64,000 nucleotides of DNA from Paramecium tetraurelia (Eukaryota), in contig CT867997.1 of assembly GCA_000165425.1 (NCBI GenBank), forward strand, positions 372,001-436,000. The letters run 5' to 3'. The translations under genes and the position numbers were made by a program. This document shows, one piece after another, positions 14,940 to 57,570 of the stretch. The notes under the pieces are model-generated. The model did no database searches, was not told where the DNA came from, and worked only from the letters and a program-made list of their open reading frames with translations. The first letter of the stretch is position 1. Each line of letters starts with the position of its first letter.

Positions 14940-17900
14940 TCACTCTGTCTACTAGAACTTATCATAAAACATCGAACAAAAAAATTCAAACATTTATTGC
15001 TTTGATGGTTAATTTGATGAATGGATTGGACTTGTAGGGTAGGAACTAGAATTCTTGTAAGGCATCTAATTATTATTCCTTTAATCTTAATAAGGGTAAG
15101 GCTAAGCATGCATATTGGATGGCCCCTGATTGTGATTAAAGCTTTAATTATTAGAATATTATTCATGATAAGGATTAAATTTTCTTTGCTTTTTTATGTG
15201 AGGTTCTTAGTGATTCTAATAATTTTATTTTTACCTATAAAACCCTTATTGACGATGAGGGGACTGGTTTCTAAATTTATTATCCCTTGGTTTTTAATTA
15301 TTATAGAATTATTGTTATTATGGATGCTAATATTATTATTATTATTAAAATGGTTATTATTATTGTTATGATTCATATTATTACTACTAAAATTGCTATG
15401 GGTATTATTATTATTATTATTACTACTATTACTTCCTATAATTATTTTATTTTATGCTTGGAGATTGTACTTATTCAAGATCATATTAGACAGGATTGAC
15501 AATTGATTTTTAAATGTTTTTCTAAATGGTCTAGTCTTTTTTAGTTAAAAATTCTTAAATTCCATACTATTCTAAGGGAAATGCATAACTGTTTTATCTT
15601 TATTACTATTGATTTTATTGGGCATTAACTTATTCATTGGAATTTTAGTTTCTTTAGTGTCTATCATTTTATTTCTAGTTTTGCTAATGGAATTATTAAT
15701 TATTTTATGAATCCCATTGTTTGTTTTATTGAGAGTGGGGCATCATTGATTTTTCATGGCCTTAATTGTATTATTAAGATCTATTTCCAAATGATTAACT
15801 TTCCTATATTTTTTATTGATTTTACTAATTATAATTCTAATTATGGTTCTAATTATGATGTTTAAATTTTGCATCTGTATTGCCATATTATTAATCTTAA
15901 ACTTATCTATCAAATGGTTTAGTTTTTTAATTTTGTTCTTAAATTTAATTATCATTTTTATAATTTTAATAAGATTATTAGTAGTTTTATTAATATTTCT
16001 TATGTTGATGATGGTGATGATGATGTTGATGCTAGTGTTGATATTATTATTATTCCTTTAATTCTCTTTCTTTAATTTCTTTTTATATAGCTTGTTATTA
16101 AAGGTACTCTTATTCTTTCTAAAATTCAATTTCTTCAGATCTCAATTTCTGTAGCCTTATTTCAGCTTTTTTGATATTCTCTTAATGAATCCTCTCTTTT
16201 TCCTTCTTCTTCTATTCCTCCTTTAATCTCTCTTTAGCTTCTTTTTCTGCTTACATTTATTTGAGAATATCTTGACCACTTTTCCTTTCGCTACTCTTTC
16301 TTCTCTTATTATCTTTACTCTTCTCTTTTCTTTTAGATTATTATGAACTTTTAGCTCTTTTCTTTTCTTTACTATCCTTTTTAGACCTAGTTTTTGAATT
16401 TTCACTCCTTTCTTTTTAATGTTATCTCTTATTATTTTTATTTTTTTATTTATCTTTAACATCAATATCTGATTCTGAGAGTTTTTTGTCTCTAGATTTT
16501 TATTCTTCTTCCCTTTGTTCTTTGGTGTTAGGTTTCTCCACATTTTTTTCTGGTTCTTTTTAGATATCCTTATTCTTTTATTGATTAATTTATTCTCTGG
16601 ACTCTTTTTATTTTTTATTGGCTTAGGTTTCACCAAACTATATGCTACTTTAATCACTGATCAAAATTGATGATGAACTTACTATTGAATCTGGACTATC
16701 AATATCATTATTATCTTGAAATAGATTATCAATATCATCATTCATTTAGTTGTTACCTTATTAAAAGGTTGAACAAACATTGTTTTAATTTTAAATTTTA
16801 ATGCCTTCCCCTTTTTATTGTTGAAAAGTTGGCTATTGTGGTTTGGAAATGATTTCATCATTTGAAGATTCAATGCATATAATATTTGATTTATTAGAAT
16901 GACTCTGTTATTATTAAGTTTCTTATAATTTAAGCTATTTATCAACATTTTCTGGTTATATTTCCTTTGATTTAGTAATTTCTGAATTCAATCTATTTGA
17001 AGCTGTTTTAATTATTTTAGATGATTAGCCCTTTTTGTTGATATCTCCTTGAGAACTCTTAAATATCTCATTATCAATATCAATTATTTAATAAGGAGTT
17101 ACTTCTTAAATCTCATTTTACAGTAATTAATTTTGGTTAATAAAGGTATCATCATCTGCCCTAGAAGTAAAATGATTGCTTTCCTTATTGATATAATCTA
17201 AATGATCTTGTTATTTATGAATTTAAGGCTATTAAAAGTCCTATGGGTTCTTAATTGAATTTTTCTAATTTTAATTTAGATTATTGTCATCAATTAATTT
17301 AGTATAATCAAATTTCTCTGGAGAAGAACTAATATGAATTATTTTCTATCCATCAGAATTTTAATTATCCACCAATATATTTGTTTTTTCTTGATCTGGT
17401 GCTCTATGAAGTCTAGTAAGAGTTGTTTCAATTTCAGTAACATTTTTCCTTGTTTTGATAGCCCATCTTTTCATTAATATAGGTAATTTTTCAAACAATA
17501 TCAACTCAAGTTCTTTATCACTCATTGCTTTATGGCATCTATCTTAGAATTTAGACCACCAATAATTCTATTAACACTTCTCTTTTAACAAATCATACAA
17601 TTTAATTAATTCTGTATCTTGAGAAAAGTCAAATTCTTATTGTTCTTTATCACTTAGGGTATCACTTAACTAATTGATTTTATCTGATTCATTGTTAAAA
17701 TTATTATTTGCTAATATTTATTCTGTATTATTTATTTTCTCAGACATTTCAGTAATTTATTCTTTTTGTTTTGGATTAGATTTGGATTTAGAAGAAGGGA
17801 GGTTTTGTTATTGTTGAACCTTATCTGATTGCATTGTAGCCATCCCAGGTACTAAATAAAATAAAAGAAAAAATACATTTTTAATCTGGTAAATCATCTT

Positions 17901-18783
17901 TAAAAACAGATTCCAATGAAATTTTTTGTTGTTCTGAAAAATAAGATCCCTTTGGGTTGTCTATATTATTTTGGTGCTTCTAATTTTGTATTACCTATTA
18001 TTATGCTTATTATTATCTATTTGATTCATTTTATTGTTACTATTAGAGTGTTTTATCCTCTATCTCTATTGATGATATGAGTGTTTTTTCTTTATTTATT
18101 TACTACTATTATATAACTTCTAAATTTTGCTTTTAGGCTTGCTCTGTATTTATCATTGGATTTATTGAATCTTGATTAGACTTGACTTCTTCAGGACTCT
18201 TTTAATCTAATTAAACCTCAGAGACTTGATTTCTATTTATTTAATATTAATTTTCTTGTTTTTAATTCTTATGAAATCTACCTTTCTTTTTATTCTACGA
18301 TGTCTAATTTTAATTAGATTACAATTCTCCTTATAAATTAAACTCTTGAGTTACTTACCCATTTTGTAGTTTGAGTAAATATTAATCATAAGAACTGATG
18401 ATTTTTTGAAATAAGCCTTCTAGGAACTTAAATTCTCCTAAAATGTATTGATGCATAATCATTTACACTGGTTCTACCTTCATCTACTCAATATACCATA
18501 AGGCTGCAGGATTATTCATAAAATCATTGAAAAGTTTTGTCTAGTTAAAATCTTTTGATGCCAAGATTTGGAGCAATCTAAAAATATCATTTTTGTTATG
18601 GATGATAAGCAATAAAGCTAGAGTCTTTAACAACTTTGGTAATTTCTCCTTTACATCTATTCTATTTTGCTACTATTCTTGCTTGATATAATCCAAAATT
18701 ATAGCAACATCATACTATTATGGTTTAATGAGACTATAGGTTCTACAGTCATAAATGCTCGTGTTATCAATCCAAAAAATCAT
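14940..18783 (-). CDS. Large hypothetical protein with a helical N-terminus and Q/N/R/E low-complexity body
   Basis: Long code-6 ORF from MIFWIDNTSIYDCRTY to MFEFFCSMFYDKFQQTE-TGA. Confidence 0.72.
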
Positions 18784-19254
18784 TATTATATTTTTATAAA
18801 TTTATATTCAAGAATCTTAAGACATTAAAAAATCATTGAATTTATTAAGTTTTAAATTTGAAATTTAAGACTCTCACAATCATTTAATTAAAGCATTTCT
18901 TTTTAATAAATATTTAATTTCCTTTACTGTTCATTATAAAATAATTATTGATATCAATATGAGAGTATGAAATCCCAATGCTCATAGAAAGCAACAAGAA
19001 TAATCTATTTAGTGCTGGATCCTACTATTAATTCTATATTTTAATGTATTTTTAACTTTTTCTATGAATTCTGTATTCTCTCTTATTAAACAAAAGTTAA
19101 TCGATAATGAACTCATAAGAATTTTTAGAATTATTAGACTGAAATCTTATTGATATTATTTGGTGATTGAGATTAATTAATTTTAGTAAGATGTTTTATT
19201 GTAATTCATTTATGAACTGCTAAATTTAAGTATTAAATAAAATTTTATTAAAAA

Positions 19255-47290: not shown

Positions 47291-49142
47291 TATATATATT
47301 CTTAAATATCTTAATAATATTATTAACAAATTATTTAATCATTTTTGGATTAAATAGAATCATAAAATTAATAATATAATAAATTAATGATTGTTATAAT
47401 ATTATTAACAATTGAGAAAATCTATGAAATCATCATATAATAGCAATATCAAAGGCTAAAACAAAAGTTTTATATATGATATAAATAATGAATATAAATT
47501 TTGATCTAAAAAATATAAAAATTAATATATTTTAATCAATATTCGTAATTAGAATCAAATAAATGGAATGACGATGATATAATAACAAAATTAAAATCAT
47601 ACACTTGATTATAAATCCCATGCTTTGTTTATATAAGTTATATTTCTCTTAAATTATTTTTGATTAGAAAAATGACTTAGAAATCACTAATTCAAATACT
47701 GATATATAAACAATGATTAGTTTTTTGTTGAATCCTTGTGGATTTGCAAATGATAACTAATTTAATTGGCTAATACATTAGAAGATTTGACTTGATGAAA
47801 TTATTACCATTTTGTAATTTTTTATTGTTAAGAAATTGAAAGGGCATCAAGAATACTAGCGACATTATTTATTTCTGCCTCTTTGTCAATTGAATTAAAA
47901 TAATAAATTATTGATATAAATATTTATATTTTTAAAATCAAATTATTTTTATTTCATCAAATAGAAAGTGGCTTCATGATTGATTTTCATGTTGATAAGT
48001 CTATTTGTTTAGGATATTCTTTTAAACATTATCGATTCTAATTATAGTTATTTCAATTTATGACTATTAACATCCTTTAAATATAGTGTCTTAAAAAGGA
48101 TTCAGAGTTTAATTTTATCAAAATTATGCTGCTTTATAGCACAAGTGGATAAAATATTCTTTGGGTTTAGTGATGATGATTTTAGTTGTAGCCTATTGAA
48201 ATCTTTCGTCATAAAAATAATTATTAACACAGTATTTTTGTAATGAGTTGTTGGACAAGTAGAAAAATATATAAATAATGAAAATACTCCTTAAATAATT
48301 ATAATCATTGAAATTCTTTTTTACTAATCAAGATTTTTTATGTTGAAGCTAACTTTAGTTTAATATTTTTAAAGCCAACTATTTTTTGAATTTTTGAAGT
48401 TCGATCACTTCACCTGGAAATTGGTTTAAGTTAATGATCGTATATGTTTTATATTAGTGTTATTCAGGTGCTTAGGTATTAAAATTCATGAGGATTATTA
48501 ATAATTATTTCAATTATATTTAGATATGTTTTAATCTTGAATTAAATAATCACAGCCATAAAACCATCAAATCGTTCTAATTAGAATAAAAGATATTGAA
48601 TGGAACTATTTAATAATTAATCATCTTTAGAAATTCAAATGATTAAAAAACTTTAATATTTAAATATAATTATTATTTTTATCCAAATATATCAATCTAA
48701 AACTTTTCATCTAAATTATTCTAAAGAAGTCTAATATAAAATTATAAAATAAAAAATTTTAAAACTATTTTTAGATATCCACACTAGCGAATTATATCAC
48801 AAATTCAAAACAAATTAAGATAAATTAAATTAAATAATCTGATATAATTTACATATAATAGTGATTTATATATTAACAATTGCAAATATCATATTTTATA
48901 ACATAAATAAAATGTTTAGATTTTCAAACTCAAATTGGCTATAATTTTTGAATTTTTTTCAATATTATAAGAATTGATCTAGATGTTCCAATGTTTATGT
49001 ATGCAATTCAGATTTCAAAGGATTTCGAAATGTTTTTTGATTAATATTAAGATTATTTGTAATTAACTGCTCATTTATCGACTTGAAGTATTAGTTTGAG
49101 ATTTATTATTTAACTTCTTCTAATAATTAAATTAAGTTATAA

Positions 49143-51291
49143 ATGTCTAAAGAGGTGTAAGGCTTGTTGAAGACGTATTTGTAGGTCGAAAAGGAGGCTC
49201 AATAGATTAAAGATAAATAAATAAAGTTAGCTAAAGTAAAGAAATCTAGTAAATAAGAATTTAGCGAATTCCTGAAATAGGTCCTCATCCTTAAAAGTAA
49301 TCATAAAACAAAGTTAAGGAGTAAGTTTCAGCTCTGAAATAAAAGAGAATTCAATTAGAAAAGGAATCCCATAAAATATCTTAAGAACATGATTATATGT
49401 AACAAATCCTTTAAAATGAATTAAAGAAATAATTAGCTCCTCCTCAAAAGCATAATGATATATTATTAAATCTAGAAAAAGTAGCACAAGAAACTTAATT
49501 CACATATCTCAAATTCAGAACAGAGAAGTTTGTATAAAAATTGGGGAAGATCTTTTCTATTTTTTCAATCAAGCAGGAATTTCTTCATAAATTAAAGAAG
49601 CATCAATAGAAATCCTAAGAAGATTTGCATCAATACATAGAATTCAGAAATTTCCAATTACAAAAGAAGGCCTTTAATTGCTGGACCCTTTATTTTAAAT
49701 AAATAAAGGAAGAGAGAAGATTGAAGGAAGAATAACAATAGAAGAAATACGAAATGGGATAGAATGTAAGAAATTGTATTAATTTTAGCAATTGGCTTTG
49801 GAATTCAATAACTTTTGTTTAACAAATAAATGCTTCAAAGCTCTTAAGTAATATGTTAAGATGAATAAATTAACTAAATAATTTGAGACAGATTAAAATT
49901 AAATCAAAGTTAAAGTCAATAATTTCTTGAATCAAATGCAAAGGCAGATATCTGATGCTTTAGAAAAAGAGAAGGAGGAAATTTAATTGATTAAATAATC
50001 AAATTTGATAAACGATGAAGAATTGACAATTTCAAATTCCTAATAATCAATATAATCAGAGAGAGAAGAGTAAATTGATCTCAATTAAGAAGAAATTCTT
50101 TAGTCTTATGAAAATGAATTTTTATAATAGTCAAATGAAGAATAAATGTAATTAACAATAAAACCTATACAACAACCTGAAATATAATAAATTAATCAGA
50201 AGAAATAAAACGAGAAATAAATAATTGAATAATAGGAGGTAATTAATGGAAAATAAAAAACTCCAATCATTAAGGAAAGTTATCAACCTCCTTTACCAAT
50301 AAATCCTTGGAAATAGAAGTAGACCACATCAATTTAAAATATGGTTGAAGATAATGAATAATCAATATAGAAGCAAAATAGTCCTCAAAATATGTCATAA
50401 TAAAGTTTTTCAAGATAAAGATCTGTTGATAAAAAGAGTACTTACAATAAGGAATTAGAAGAAAAGGCAAAAAAAAGAAAGGAAATGAATGAAGTCATTA
50501 AGAAGAAGCATGAAGATAAAAAGAAATAGAAAGAAATAGAAAAATAATAATAGGAATAATAAAGATAGTTGGAGATAAAAAAGCAAAAGGAGGAGGAATA
50601 CAACAGAATTCAGGAAAAAAAGAAGAGAGAATTAGAACAAAAATAAAAAATGGAACAAGAGAAATTTGAACTTGAATATAAAACTGAAATTGCAATAAGA
50701 CATTATGAAAAAAGTTTACAAAAATATCAAATATTCATACCTATTTTGAAATTGCATCAACAATATCAAAATAATTAGTAGAGAGCAGAAAATCATTACG
50801 AAAATAATTTAAAATAAAGCCTTTTTCTTATCTTAAAAAAGATTAAATAAATATGTGAGGATTAAAGAGAATATGAAGAATAAATTAGGATCAATATATC
50901 TAATAATCATTATGAAAGAAATTTAAAACTAAAAGCTATTTTCAGTCTAAAATCACTTCAGAAAAATTAAAAAGACAAACTAAAGGATGCTTTATAGATT
51001 AGAGAAAAGTATATTAAAAGACATATTATGACTGCTTGGTATATTTAATTGCCAGAATTGAGAGCTGAGAATGTAAAACTTGAAAGAGCTTCAGAGAGAT
51101 TAGTTAATGATTTTAGAAGAGTAAATTTTATCATAAAATTATAGGCTATACTTTAGAAACAATTTTTTAATCAATGGAAAACTGTGGCTAGGGAAAATAT
51201 TGCTTAAAGAATACGAGAGTAGAACAAATAGGAAATGTGGCAAAAAGTAAATTAATGGCTTTAAGAATTTGATGATGAAAAGATTGAATGA
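49143..51291 (+). CDS. Coiled-coil protein with Sfi1-like repeats (A..HY...L...F..W), CCDC191-like
   Basis: IAIRHYEKSL, RAENHYENNLK and NNHYERNLKLKAIF, ending FFNQWK..MWQKVNQWLQEF. The family assignment is an inference. Confidence 0.65.
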
Positions 51292-51389
51292 ATAATTTAT
51301 TTAACTTTATATTCATATTTATAAAATCATTATAATATTTAGAATTATAAATAGAAAATGTATGAAAAATTAAAAAAGTATATTTCTTA

Positions 51390-53126
51390 ATGGAGTTAGA
51401 AAAACCAATCAAATAAGATGTTCACAATTACCCACCTAAAATAGAATAAGCATAGGAACAATAAACAGTCTAAATTGAATTCAAACAGATTTTATAAGGT
51501 TTGGAAGATTAAATTGCTTAAGCGTTCTAAAATTCTGCATATTTTGAAAAAGAGAACTTTAAAGATCATCATTCTATTTAAATGGTGATCTTTAAAGAGT
51601 TGAGAGCTACAGAATAGTGGTAATAATTGTAGAATGAAACTCCTATGGGAATTTATAATTCTATCTTTCCAAAGAAGTTAATTCGATACTTGATAGATTA
51701 AATTAATGTAAAAATGAAGACTTCATTTGCTAACTAAGATGAAAAGTAAATTAGAAAAAAATTAGTGAAGATAGATTAAATATTCGATTTTTTTGGAATA
51801 AAGATAATAATGGGATACATTAAAATGCCTCATTTGGAAGATTATTTTAATGAGAAGCAATTATTTTAATGCAAAATATTCGAATGTTTTAAAGAGGGTA
51901 GATTCAAGTGTTTAGAATAATGGAGTAACTTTACTGACGAATGTCTACTAAAGAATATCAATAAAGCAAAGCCAATAAATGAATTTTAAACAATTAGAGT
52001 ATGTAAAAAAATTGGAAAAACGTTAAGAAATATTAAAACACCTGGAAAAGATTTAATACTATAAGTAAATTCAGGATTCATAATAGAATAGTCAATTAAT
52101 TCTTAATAAATAATGATTTGTGATCCAAAGAGCAAATTAATAGTTTGGTAATACTTTTGTAACAACATCCAAGAAGAGAAAGTAGGTCTTTAAATTGTTC
52201 ATGTATTACAGTAGTTCAAGGATAACAATCATACATTGTACATCTACGATAATATTCTAAATTTAGAGTAAATTGCATATTTGAAAATTAAACTCAAAAT
52301 TTAATGTGTCCAAAAGCTTGATAGCATTTAAGCAAGCTAAGTGCCTTAAATTCCACTTTATCTCGATTATATGTCGATAATTAAAGAGCAAAATGAAGTT
52401 TTTGCTGTTACTTCTGGAGAATAGATTTAGCAATTAATCTGCACTTATAATCAATACAAAGAGACTATGTTATTGTATTGCATACACAAATTTAGGCCAA
52501 ATTTTTCGTATATTCATTACTCAAGTGCAATTATGACTGAATTATAAGAAATTACAATATGGAATTCTTATTAGATTGTTATGAAATTAAAAGCCTCACA
52601 GCACTAGTAAACGTATGAATAGTTTCGATTAGGGTTAGCTTAAGAATTATTGAAGAATAAAATTACTTAAATAAAGAATGTTCCAACTTTATTACATAAA
52701 TAGAAAGTAGTGAATGTGGCTTTGGGGACAGAAATATTTGGGGATTATGGCTAAGGAACCAAAATCAATACAAAATCCTTATTCCACATCCCAACAATTA
52801 TGGCTACTCCTAAAACTTATGCTGGATCAATGAATTGCTTAGTTTGTAAAAGAAATACTTAATTAATCACTCTATGTAAACCTTGTTCAGAGATATCAGG
52901 TAAGTTAGTTATTCTATGTGCTTGTGATTGCTTTTATTTGTTCCATCAGAATACTTTGGAATACATAATAAATGGAGAAGATGTTACTCAGACCTAGTAT
53001 AAATCAATAGAATAATCAAGCCAACAATTATATCATTAAGCCTTTTAATAGAAACCTGGTTTGATGTATGAAAATGTGGATAAGGGCAAATCTGTTTAGT
53101 ATGCAAAGTAAGTAGAGATTGAATGA
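51390..53126 (+). CDS. PGML: Domesticated piggyBac transposase, PiggyMac-like (probably PgmL1 class), catalytically degenerate
   Basis: Intronless 578-aa code-6 ORF. piggyBac-family blocks are PMGIYNSIFP, IFDFFGIKIIMGYIKMPHLEDYF, RF, PGKDL, HTLYIYDN, YNQY, IWNSY and FRLGLAQELL. The C-terminal Cys-rich domain is H..CLVC-x9-CKPC-x10-CACDCFYLFH. Confidence 0.88.
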
Positions 53127-53516
53127 TTGATTAAATATATAAATAAATTTAACAAGATACATATTTCTATCAATTTCTTTGTAATTATTTTAATTATCAA
53201 TGAGATTATAATTCTTAAAGATAATGAACCTAAAATCATTGATAATAAGATCTAGCATGAATTTCATAGAATATGCTTATTGTAAAGTATCAAAGTCATG
53301 AGACTATACTCAATAATATTATTAATTCTAATGGGATTGCCCTAGTTGTTGAATAGGGAGACCCTTGTTTAGAATCAATTGTATTAGAAAATAAACTATA
53401 TAGAACTGATTAGAGAGTTTAATGAAAGAATTAAGATAATAAAATTTATGTTATTTAAAATGCTTTTTGCAATTCAAAAAGCAAGATAATATTTTTAAAA
53501 AACCACATTTTAATTT

Positions 53517-56500
53517 ATGGATCAAAAACAAAGTTTCGCAAGAAGAGACAAGCTAAGAGCGATTGAAATATCAATCCAGGAATAATGGGCAGCCAATTAA
53601 TCTTTCTATTCAAATCCAGATGAGAGAAAGAAATTTTTCTTGACTTTTCCATTCCCATATGTAAGAGATCTATATATTCTATTAGGCTAATGGTAGATTG
53701 CATCTAGGCCATTGTTTCTCATTTAGCAAGTGCGATTTTATTGCAAGATTTAAAAGACTTTAGGGTCAAAATGTGCTCTTGCCATTTGCATTTCATTGCA
53801 CAGGAATGCCAATTAGTGCTGCTGCCAAAAGACTTTAACGTGATTTGGACACATTGGTAAAATCAATAGTTAATATTAGAAATCAGGATAAGAGTTACCA
53901 AAGCAATGCTAATACTCATCACTTCTTTAGATGAATATAAAGGAAGATGAAATTCATAAATTTACTGATCCATATTATTGGATTCGTTTTTTCCCATCTT
54001 TGGGTAAGGAAGATTTGATTTCTTTTGGATCCTCAGTTGATTGGAGAAGAAGTTTCATCACCACAGATGAAAATCCATACTTTAATTCATTTATTGAATG
54101 GCATTTAACTAAATTGAAGGAAGCTGGATATGTCAAATTCGGATAGAGACCTTCAATATTTAGTACTTAAGATGGTTAATTGTGTGCTGATCATGATAGA
54201 AGAGAAGGAGAAGGAGTCAACCCATAAGAATACACATTAATCAAATAAAGAGTATTAAAGCCAGAATTGGTAGATGCAGCTTTGGCTGGAAAAAACCTCT
54301 TTTTGGTATGTGCTACTTTAAGACCAGAAACAATGTATGGTCAAACTAATACATTCGTATTGCCTGAAGGAGAATATGGAGTATTCGAAATGAAAAATGA
54401 TGAATTATTTGTTTGTAGTGAAAGATCAGCATTAAATATGGCCTATCAAGGTTTGACCAAAGAAGAAAAGAAGGTTAACAAAGTAGCTACAGTTTTGGGA
54501 ACATAATTAATTGGATTGGAAATTAAAGCTCCTTTGACTAATTATGAGAAAGTATATGTGTTACCTATGCCTGGAATCAAAATGAATAAGGCAACTGGAG
54601 TTGTTACATCCGTCCCAAGTGATGCCCCAGATGATTGGGCTACCTTAAGAGATTTGTAAAAGAAACCTGATTTTTATAAAATCAAACCAGAATGGGCTGA
54701 TTTCAAACCCATTCCAATTATTGATGTTCCTAAATATGGCGATTTAGCCGCTTTGACTGCATGCGATCAACTCTAGATCAAATCATTGAAAGATAAAGAC
54801 TTATTGTAAAGAGCAAAAGAAGAAGTCTACAAGGCAGGTTTTTATGAAGGAAAAATGATTATTGGAAAATACAAAGGAATGAAAGTTTGTGATGCCAAGC
54901 CATTAGTTAGAAAGGACATGATTGAAAGCGGTGAAGCCTTGCCATATTTCGAACCAGAGAACACAGTCATTTCAAGAAATGGTGATGAATGCGTAGTTTC
55001 CTATTGTGATTAATGGTACATCACATATGAGAATCAAGAGTGGAAGGATAGAGTTAAGGAGCACGTTAAAAACAATTTCGAAACTTACAATGTTAAAGTC
55101 AAACAAGAATTATTGGATGCCATCGATTGGATTAGAGAATGGGGATTGTCTCGAAGTTTCGGATTAGGTACAAAGGTGCCTTGGGATAAGCAATATTTGA
55201 TTGAATCCCTTTCAGATTCAACCATTTATTTCGCTTATTATACAGTTGCTCATTATATATAAGGAGACCTAAATGGAACTGTTCCAGGACTTGCTGGATT
55301 CACTGCAAATCAAATGACAATTCCTGTTTACGATTATTTGTATTTGGGCAAGGACAGTGAATAGGTTCCACCTGAAATGAAACCATAATTGGATGTCATG
55401 AGAAAGGAATTCTTGTATTATTATCCAATGAACTTGAGATCATCTGGAAAAGATTTAATTAAAAATCATCTCATCTTTGCATTGTTCAATCATGCAGCTG
55501 TTTGGAAAGACTAACCTTAATTGTGGCCAAAAGGTTATTTCTGTAATGGTTACATATTGGTTGATGGTTAGAAGATGTCCAAGTAATTAGGAAACTTTAA
55601 GACTGTTTAAGATATGATTAAGATCTACGGAGCTGATGCAACAAGATTAGGATGTGCTGAAGCAGGAGATTTGTTGGATGATGCTAATTATGAATTGAAA
55701 TTAGCCGATTCTGGTATCTTGAAATTGACAACACTTGAAATGTATCTTGAAAAGATCTTCCCAGTTATATAAAACTATCGTACTCAAGCCTAATCTAAAA
55801 ACATTGAATTTTTCGATAAAGTCTTTGAGAGCTAAATCAATCATCAAGCCATACAAGTTATTTAGAATTATGAAGAGATGAAATTCAGAGATGTTGCCAA
55901 AAATGGATTCCATGTCTTGTAAGGATACAAGGATGATTACTTACTTGCTGTTTAAACTGAAGGACCTAATAAAAATTTAATATTAAAATACATTGAAATC
56001 CAATTAACCTTGATGAATCCAATAGTTCCTCATATAACTGAATATTGCTATTAGAAATATTTCTATCCATTTGTTAAAGACTAAGGATATCCAGAAACAT
56101 TGACTAAGTTTGTCTTACCCAATGTTGGAACCTATGTGTATGATGCAAATGTTCTTAGATAATATAATTACCTTTAAATATTAATGAGTAGTTTGAGAGT
56201 TGCTATTGCTAAATACAAGGAAACTCTTAAGAAGCAAAAGAAGCCAGAAGTTATTAATAAGGTTACTTTGGTTGTTGCTAAAGACTTTGCTGATTGGTAG
56301 AAAGAAGTCTTAATCTTCATGAATAGACAATTGATTGATAATGAACCAGGCTTTGATTTCAACGCTTAAATCAAGGCTAACAAGGGTAAAAATATGGCTG
56401 CCTAATTACAATTTAGCAATTATATCATGGTAATACTTCAATATTAAATGTTAGGGTGAATATAAATAAAGAGGAGTAGATGCCATCAATCCAAATCCTA

Positions 56501-56698
56501 CCCTTGATGAGGAAGCATTCTTAAACAATTTTACTTAGTATATAATTAGTGATCTGAAGGTTAAAGAATTCGCTGTAATTTATGTTTATTATCCTTTAGA
56601 TTATTGACTCAATAGTAGCCTAGAAGAGTGATGCAAAACCAGTTCAATAAGCAGGTAATAATGCATAACCTGGAAAACCCTGCCCATTATTTGAATGA
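53517..56698 (+). CDS. LARS: Leucyl-tRNA synthetase (eukaryotic cytosolic type)
   Basis: Motifs [72 protein letters not shown] and KMSKQLGNF. Possible upstream in-frame starts at 53448 and 53460. Confidence 0.97.
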
Positions 56699-56737
56699 TT
56701 ATATAGCATATAGATGTTCAAATTATAAATATTCCAA

Positions 56738-57570
56738 TCATTTTTTATTAGAATCATGAATTCTAAATTTGCCTGATAATTTAATATAATTTTACTCACT
56801 AGTTTTCATTTCTAATATTCTACTGATTTTTTCATTAAAATTCTTATATTTGGAATTCTATATATCATTTAATTTAGTTGTTTCTATTAGTCCTGGAACC
56901 TATACCTTATTTAAATATTTTCTTTCGTTTCTGGTACTCTAAAATGTTATAAGATTGTGTTGTTAAATAACACTTAAATTTTGTTATTGTTTAATAAATA
57001 AAACATCGCATCCAGTTTTTATTTCTATCTGAATTAAGCTAAATTGACATATCATTAATAGATATATGCCTCATGTGCATTAAATTTGTTTTATATTAAT
57101 TATCATAAGTCAAACTCTAACTTTTATACATTTCACACATAACATACCCAAAATAATAAAAGAATTTATAAAATTTGCAAATATATTATGCAAAATCCTA
57201 TCTCTATGTTATTGTATGAAAGTTCATTGCAATTTGCATGAATTCTGAGATATTAAGATCAAACCTTAGCAACTTTTACTGCCAAATATTATATTTAATA
57301 TGTCATTTGATTTTTCTCAATCTTTGAATAGGAGTTCACTTTCCTTTGAAATATTCCATTCTGAATTTACAACATAACTGAAATTGATATATTATGAATA
57401 TATAAATGACTCTTTCTCTTAGTTCCATTATTATTCACCTCTATTAAGGAGTTAAAATACAATAACTGCTATAATTTTGGAATAAGTAATCTAGAGGGTA
57501 TCAATATAGGTGTTCTATTGTTCTTCAACAAATTACTTAGATTTATATTCGACAGAATGTTTACTCTATA
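56738..57570 (-). other. Possible hypothetical or degenerate CDS
   Basis: Coding-like code-6 stretches, but I could not establish a clean start or frame. Confidence 0.25.

Follow-up and report, generated by a model that had tools for sequence, protein, structure and literature searches.

An open reading frame of the Paramecium tetraurelia somatic genome that almost certainly is PGML1, a domesticated piggyBac transposase gene without its catalytic triad

In a stretch of 64,000 nucleotides from Paramecium tetraurelia (GenBank assembly GCA_000165425.1, contig CT867997.1, positions 372,001 to 436,000 of the forward strand; hereafter "the window", by whose numbering all positions are given), an open reading frame (ORF) at 51390-53126 on the + strand raises the question of what a transposase-like protein with an eroded active site is doing in this genome. 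It could be a working part of the cell, the remnant of a mobile element, or an enzyme that is not quite as dead as it looks. The initial annotation took it for a subunit of the DNA-elimination machinery that works with PiggyMac (Pgm), guessed from its length that it might be PgmL1, and left room for a new subunit outside the five known families PgmL1 to PgmL5. The answer at which we arrive, with near certainty, is that the ORF is PGML1 of P. tetraurelia, a single-copy, intronless, domesticated piggyBac gene of the somatic genome, whose triad of catalytic aspartates (DDD) has been lost and whose product serves the Pgm/PgmL1-5 excision machinery as an architectural subunit without catalysis of its own. 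The gene was published together with its function in 2018 and it is not a new subunit; PGML1 is an essential and well-studied part of DNA elimination in Paramecium, a textbook case of six domesticated transposases that cooperate. Its recovery from raw sequence illustrates that genes written in code 6 and dead transposases can be recognised as such, and adds no new biology. The small additions that we can offer, in part expected from the literature, are an upstream copy of a motif known from promoters of genes co-regulated with PGM, an unspliced RNA that is conditionally expressed, a C-terminal region that is conserved above the level of the core, and a conserved aspartate, D287, beside one of the lost catalytic positions.

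When translated with NCBI table 6 the ORF is, as had been observed, a single uninterrupted frame of 578 codons followed by a TGA stop, and because it contains 52 in-frame TAA or TAG codons (38 TAA and 14 TAG) it was invisible, again as had been observed, to an ORF track made with table 11. Protein searches find the exact 578-residue protein in NCBI, UniRef and EukProt. The evidence that carries the identification is a comparison with Supplementary file 1 of Bischerour et al. (2018, eLife, PMC6143343), an alignment of transposase domains that covers residues 82-421 of PgmL1: over these residues the ORF agrees with the row labelled "PgmL1-Ptet" at 340 of 340 positions, as judged by eye, row by row, between the eleven sequence-bearing PgmL1-Ptet rows with their gaps removed and eleven segments of the ORF. 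The orthologous proteins of P. octaurelia, P. pentaurelia and P. sonneborni score 327, 315 and 288 of 340 against the same stretch, and the match is therefore specific to the species. From this identity we conclude that the gene is PGML1 of P. tetraurelia. The assignment of the gene to the Pgm-associated machinery gains support from it, and the idea of a subunit outside PgmL1-5 is refuted by it. Between the ORF and the published PgmL1 no difference was found over the compared residues, and the two also share their length, the coordinates of a C-terminal cysteine-rich domain (CRD) and the absence of the DDD residues.

Length leads to the same gene by elimination. The PiggyMac-like proteins of P. 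tetraurelia are described in PMC6143343 as five groups that range from 578 to 1085 residues, and published residue numbers exceed 578 in every other group (614 in PgmL2, 735 in PgmL3a, 931 in PgmL4a and 840 in PgmL5a), so that a protein of 578 residues, the shortest of them, should be PgmL1; the earlier guess from length was right. According to the same paper PgmL1 and PgmL2 share the layout of canonical piggyBac transposases, and the ORF has just this canonical size, with neither an N-terminal nor a C-terminal extension. The ParameciumDB accessions given for PGML1 in Supplementary file 2 of that paper are GSPATP00004877001 (strain d4-2) and PTET.51.1.G0110267 (strain 51), the latter of which appears again as the PGML1 identifier in PMC9808624, a study in which an antibody against PgmL1 served to sort new macronuclei.

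That the protein belongs to the piggyBac family, which had been proposed from short sequence blocks, is evident from its match to the Pfam profile PF13843 (DDE_Tnp_1_7), with an E-value of 9.7e-17 and a score of 61.7 bits, well above the curated gathering cutoff of 22.4 bits. The match pairs residues 84-413 (51639-52628, + strand) with positions 1-323 of the 349 in the profile and delimits a degenerate transposase core; the nearest language-model clusters of the protein all bear PF13843 as well, which we treat as a lead only. The three motifs in which the DDD residues were said to be eroded are all present, namely PGKDLILQV at residues 218-226, HTLYIYDN at 281-288 and YNQYKETML at 353-361. We take the catalytic aspartates of the T. 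ni piggyBac transposase to be those numbered D268, D346 and D447. At these positions the published alignment reads LTIDEQ, NITCDN and KGGV-D for T. ni piggyBac and LILQV, TLYIYD and KETM-L for PgmL1-Ptet, which places Q225 (codon at 52062-52064, + strand), Y286 and L361 (codon at 52470-52472, + strand) in the three catalytic columns. D287 stands one column after the second of them (codons of Y286 and D287 at 52245-52250, + strand), and the description of this residue as a "shifted" aspartate was therefore accurate. The intact triad expected of an active piggyBac transposon is thus lacking, and PMC6143343 likewise reports that PgmL1 is without conserved catalytic aspartates, its authors having used secondary-structure prediction to place the columns. 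A profile-profile alignment made with hhalign between four PgmL1 orthologues and five relatives with intact motifs covers only residues 81-224; it ends with TPGKDLIL opposite TPGSELTI, so that L224 faces the residue just before the catalytic aspartate of the relatives, in agreement with Q225 as the first catalytic position. This independent support extends to the first column, the second and third being those of the published alignment.

The alternative that fares best is suggested by D287 itself. On this reading PgmL1 would not be purely architectural and would keep some catalytic or metal-binding activity by way of D287, possibly together with D221. All seven PgmL1 orthologues seen (P. tetraurelia, P. 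octaurelia, P. pentaurelia, P. sonneborni, P. biaurelia, P. sexaurelia and P. caudatum) have the Tyr-Asp pair of positions 286-287, and a shift of register by a single residue would bring D287 onto D346, while D221 is invariant in four aligned aurelia orthologues and the matching motif of P. caudatum has an aspartate as well. Such a protein would nonetheless have to work with glutamine and leucine at the first and third catalytic positions, as found in five of five aligned sequences, and PMC6143343 notes that mutation of a single member of the triad abolishes the activity of T. ni piggyBac in vitro. The register shift would also run counter to columns that the authors of that paper set with the help of secondary structure. 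We consider residual activity of this kind to be very unlikely, and prefer to regard PgmL1 as a non-catalytic subunit.

If the core has lost its chemistry, other parts of the protein have been held remarkably constant. The C-terminal domain rich in histidine and cysteine, for which limits of about 52785-52946 had been suggested, spans exactly these coordinates, with the zinc ligands H466, C483, C486, C496, C499, C510, C512, C514 and H519, an array of seven Cys between two His. The cluster falls within the published CRD of PgmL1, residues 463-539 (52776-53006, + strand), which are also the limits of the PgmL1 construct in published work according to which the CRDs of PgmL proteins bind a histone H3(1-19) peptide whatever its methylation. 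A CRD of this type characterises piggyBac-derived (PGBD) proteins, and the ORF possesses one. It is followed by a nearly invariant C-terminal tail, residues 540-578 (53007-53123, + strand). Full-length relatives are found in P. octaurelia (578 residues, 96% identical), P. pentaurelia (576 residues, 92%) and P. sonneborni (578 residues, 87%), and PMC6143343 also lists PgmL1 orthologues in P. biaurelia, P. sexaurelia and P. caudatum. Compared region by region with the first three, the ORF is identical at 62-78 of 83 positions in the N-terminus (residues 1-83), 278-317 of 330 in the transposase domain (84-413), 44-47 of 49 in the linker (414-462), 76-77 of 77 in the CRD and 38-39 of 39 in the tail. 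The zinc-finger region and the tail have therefore been conserved more tightly than the dead core. One might read from this pattern that the working parts of PgmL1 are the CRD and the 39-residue tail, docking Pgm, PgmL3 or chromatin, along with D287, and not the eroded core; within such a reading D287 could be the true counterpart of D346 and could still help to keep a metal ion or DNA in place close to the active site of Pgm. We regard this more specific proposal as speculative and give it only an outside chance.

An exhaustive search of 1.84 billion representative proteins returned 21 at E-values up to 0.001 and two at E-values up to 1e-30, these two being PgmL1 itself and a paralogue in P. 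sonneborni. The P. sonneborni protein P0003 (378 residues) is a diverged paralogue of PgmL1 with 55% identity; 130 residues are missing from its start, as are the first five of the zinc ligands in the CRD, it has N in place of D287, and it is identical to PgmL1 at 33 of the 39 tail positions. Either a decaying duplicate or an error of the gene model may lie behind it.

Transcription of the gene was followed in three oligo-dT RNA-seq runs of one study (X21, X22 and X23, with coded stage labels) whose reads were mapped to 49000-57000, mean depths and ratios being averaged by hand from depth bins of 267 bp. Over the seven bins at 51403-53271, PGML1 has a mean depth of 40.6 in X21, 76.6 in X22 and 1.3 in X23, as compared to 78.9, 121.6 and 127.9 over the twelve bins at 53539-56742 that cover the neighbouring gene for leucyl-tRNA synthetase (LeuRS). 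The ratio of the two is 0.51, 0.63 and 0.010, respectively; PGML1 is expressed in X21 and X22 but about 50 times less in X23, while its neighbour stays level. In all PGML1 reads the first mate lies on the - strand, as it does in reads from LeuRS, a gene of the + strand. No joints or indels occur in the RNA reads inside the PGML1 ORF, and there are no loose ends there among those listed. It follows from the orientation of the mates and the absence of joints that the PGML1 RNA is a + strand, unspliced, polyadenylated transcript, of approximate extent 51403-53271 (limits set by the bins), that is strongly regulated between samples. A small-RNA run (X24) contributed 11 reads only and was uninformative.

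All PGML genes are reported in PMC6143343 to be induced at T5-T11 of autogamy, with their proteins accumulating in the developing macronucleus, and it is on this paper that autogamy specificity rests, given the coded stages of the RNA samples. For the genes that are co-regulated with PGM, Bazin-Gelis et al. (2023, NAR, PMC10711438) describe an 18-bp motif, AAAATCMTTdWAATAWTT (Co-PGM), that they find in 98 of 180 promoters, where it clusters at -60/-50 from the transcription start site (TSS), and that is needed for the expression of PGM; they count PGML1 as an intermediate-peak gene, one of those with late upregulation after knock-down of PGM, of KU80c and of XRCC4. The window holds a single exact match to this consensus, at 51323-51340 on the + strand, with its 5' base 67 bp upstream of the PGML1 ATG, and none of 100 dinucleotide shuffles contained any exact match. 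When up to two mismatches are allowed there are 11 matches in the window where 4.9 are expected. We infer that the developmental induction of PGML1 would run through this exact copy.

Elsewhere in the window, three near-matches to the Co-PGM motif with one or two mismatches lie within 330 bp at 18520-18846 on the + strand (18520, 18776 and 18829). They sit at and just beyond the start of an ORF on the - strand, 17749-18783; its continuation at 14940-18029 is a Q/K-rich ORF with over 1000 residues and no Pfam match. The gene beside this cluster may be another that is regulated in development.

According to the published account, PGML1 is switched on while the new macronucleus develops, and PgmL1 accumulates there, binds the catalytic Pgm and works in an architectural, non-catalytic capacity within the Pgm/PgmL1-5 machinery for the excision of internal eliminated sequences (IESs). 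Without PgmL1, Pgm is held less stably in the nucleus, most IESs are retained, and the excision that is left tends to fall on TA boundaries about 10 bp out of place. In the published view PgmL1 and PgmL3 position the active sites of Pgm on the IES ends, as a pair that is independent of condensin I. Most of this scheme comes from PMC6143343, which reports that every PgmL interacts with Pgm and is required to keep it stably in the nucleus, that only about 17% of IESs are still excised after knock-down of PGML1, and that the excisions which remain tend towards partial internal errors, at TA dinucleotides displaced by 10-11 bp; its authors propose an architectural placing of Pgm catalytic sites on both ends of the IES. 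A 2025 preprint sets PgmL1 and PgmL3 apart from Pgm, PgmL2, PgmL4 and PgmL5: the former two are independent of developmental condensin I and do not co-precipitate with it.

Pgm resembles PgmL1 in its PF13843 domain, its C-terminal CRD (one His, then seven Cys/His), its developmental window and its nuclear location, and the two interact physically, whereas their catalytic columns read ITIDE, VVMDN and KGGV-D in Pgm and LILQV, YIYDN and KETM-L in PgmL1, and Pgm, unlike PgmL1, is reported to co-precipitate with condensin I. PgmL3 (a, b and c) is the class of functional partners of PgmL1; knock-down of either leaves about 17% of IESs excised with internal errors shifted by 10 bp, and both are independent of condensin I. 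The two are nevertheless distinct proteins: a PgmL3-type sequence (P0020) is only 23% identical to PgmL1 over 435 aligned positions, and PgmL3 has a coiled-coil C-terminal extension that PgmL1 is without, according to PMC6143343. Lia5 of Tetrahymena thermophila is likewise a domesticated ciliate piggyBac protein without catalytic aspartates and stands beside the PgmL1 rows in the published alignment; in those rows, which are the basis of this comparison in place of a tree, its sequence is clearly different and the aspartate after the second column is absent (HVYFQNEE). At a greater distance, a mixed profile of PgmL1 and relatives with intact motifs matches solved structures of the Myotis piggyBat (9c0f, E 1.7e-30) and T. 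ni piggyBac (6x67, E 6.2e-16) transposases, and the cores of these two (PDB 6x67/6x68 and 9c0f) are homologous to that of PgmL1. Both are active enzymes encoded by elements with DDD residues, terminal inverted repeats (TIRs) and TTAA targets, and PGML1 has none of these.

A few points limit the reach of the identification. Over residues 1-81 and 422-578 the identity with PgmL1 rests on length and CRD coordinates only, and single-copy status throughout the genome rests on PMC6143343 and on protein searches. The RNA result is one of conditional expression, not of autogamy specificity, as the sample stages are coded. The fit of the upstream motif to the -60/-50 position is an estimate, and one supplementary file of PMC10711438 has 0 matches to PGML1 or its gene identifier. 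When PgmL1 alone was compared with PDB sequences no piggyBac chain was found, only two rows at chance level, and a profile of PgmL1 orthologues alone likewise found no piggyBac chain and gave zero rows. In a limited literature search none of the titles listed concerned a structure of PgmL1. No observation contradicts the identification of the gene as PGML1.

The flanks of the gene bear on whether it might still be a mobile element. The ORF is bracketed by one inverted pair only, at 51294-51315 and 53128-53149, in which 17 of 22 positions match; shuffling of the two spacers gave this score in 152 of 300 trials, and of 200 real AT-rich pairs taken from the window as controls 45 attained it. The pair is rejected as a TIR, in keeping with the earlier observation that none had been found. 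Neither TTAACCY nor RGGTTAA, which we take to be the piggyBac-type end motif, occurs at 50300-54300, and searches with tblastn and blastn found no second copy of PGML1 in the window. Of the signs that had been named for a transposon relic, a multicopy state with TIRs and TTAA target sites, the gene shows none in these searches.

A decaying piggyBac relic, evolving neutrally and without a cellular role, is what the lost triad and a core so eroded that the profile-profile alignment stops at residue 224 might by themselves call to mind, but a relic should not have kept a frame of 578 codons intact, nor full-length orthologues of 576-578 residues and 87-96% identity in three other species, with others reported from P. 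biaurelia, P. sexaurelia and P. caudatum, nor a CRD and tail that are nearly invariant. It would also have to account for regulated transcription and for the published finding that knock-down of PGML1 blocks most IES excision (PMC6143343), and with no trace of ends or of a second copy in the window we put its probability close to nil. The last alternative, a sixth and undescribed PgmL family that would be a new excision subunit, could appeal to the strong divergence from canonical piggyBac that leaves the protein and its orthologue profile without a match among solved piggyBac chains, but it has a negligible chance against the 340/340 match to PgmL1-Ptet, a length equal to that of the shortest published PgmL, a CRD at the published PgmL1 coordinates and an identity of only 23% to the PgmL3-type protein.

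Among the neighbouring ORFs four have Pfam matches above the curated cutoff, all of them to cellular families (LeuRS, two protein kinases and a protein with a CH domain); the majority of the remaining ORFs are without a Pfam match, and no tRNA genes were found. The upstream neighbour, an ORF of 476 residues at 49861-51291 on the + strand, ends 98 bp before PGML1, which is the spacer that had been recorded; it is K/E/Q-rich, has no Pfam match and is nearly silent in each of the three poly(A) RNA runs, where its depth does not exceed 2.5. The coding sequence of PGML1 itself contains a 17-nt inverted repeat with a 7-nt loop and 94% complementarity (51557-51597, about residues 56-70), which appears also as a self-match in blastn and suggests no function. 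Directly downstream of PGML1 lies LeuRS (53539-56742, + strand), the transcription of which begins a good way 5' of 53931, where the long ORF has its ATG. Loose ends in the LeuRS RNA reads are paired at distances of about 22-25 bp (53856/53879, 56430/56454 and 56574/56600) and mark introns, whose size is typical of Paramecium.

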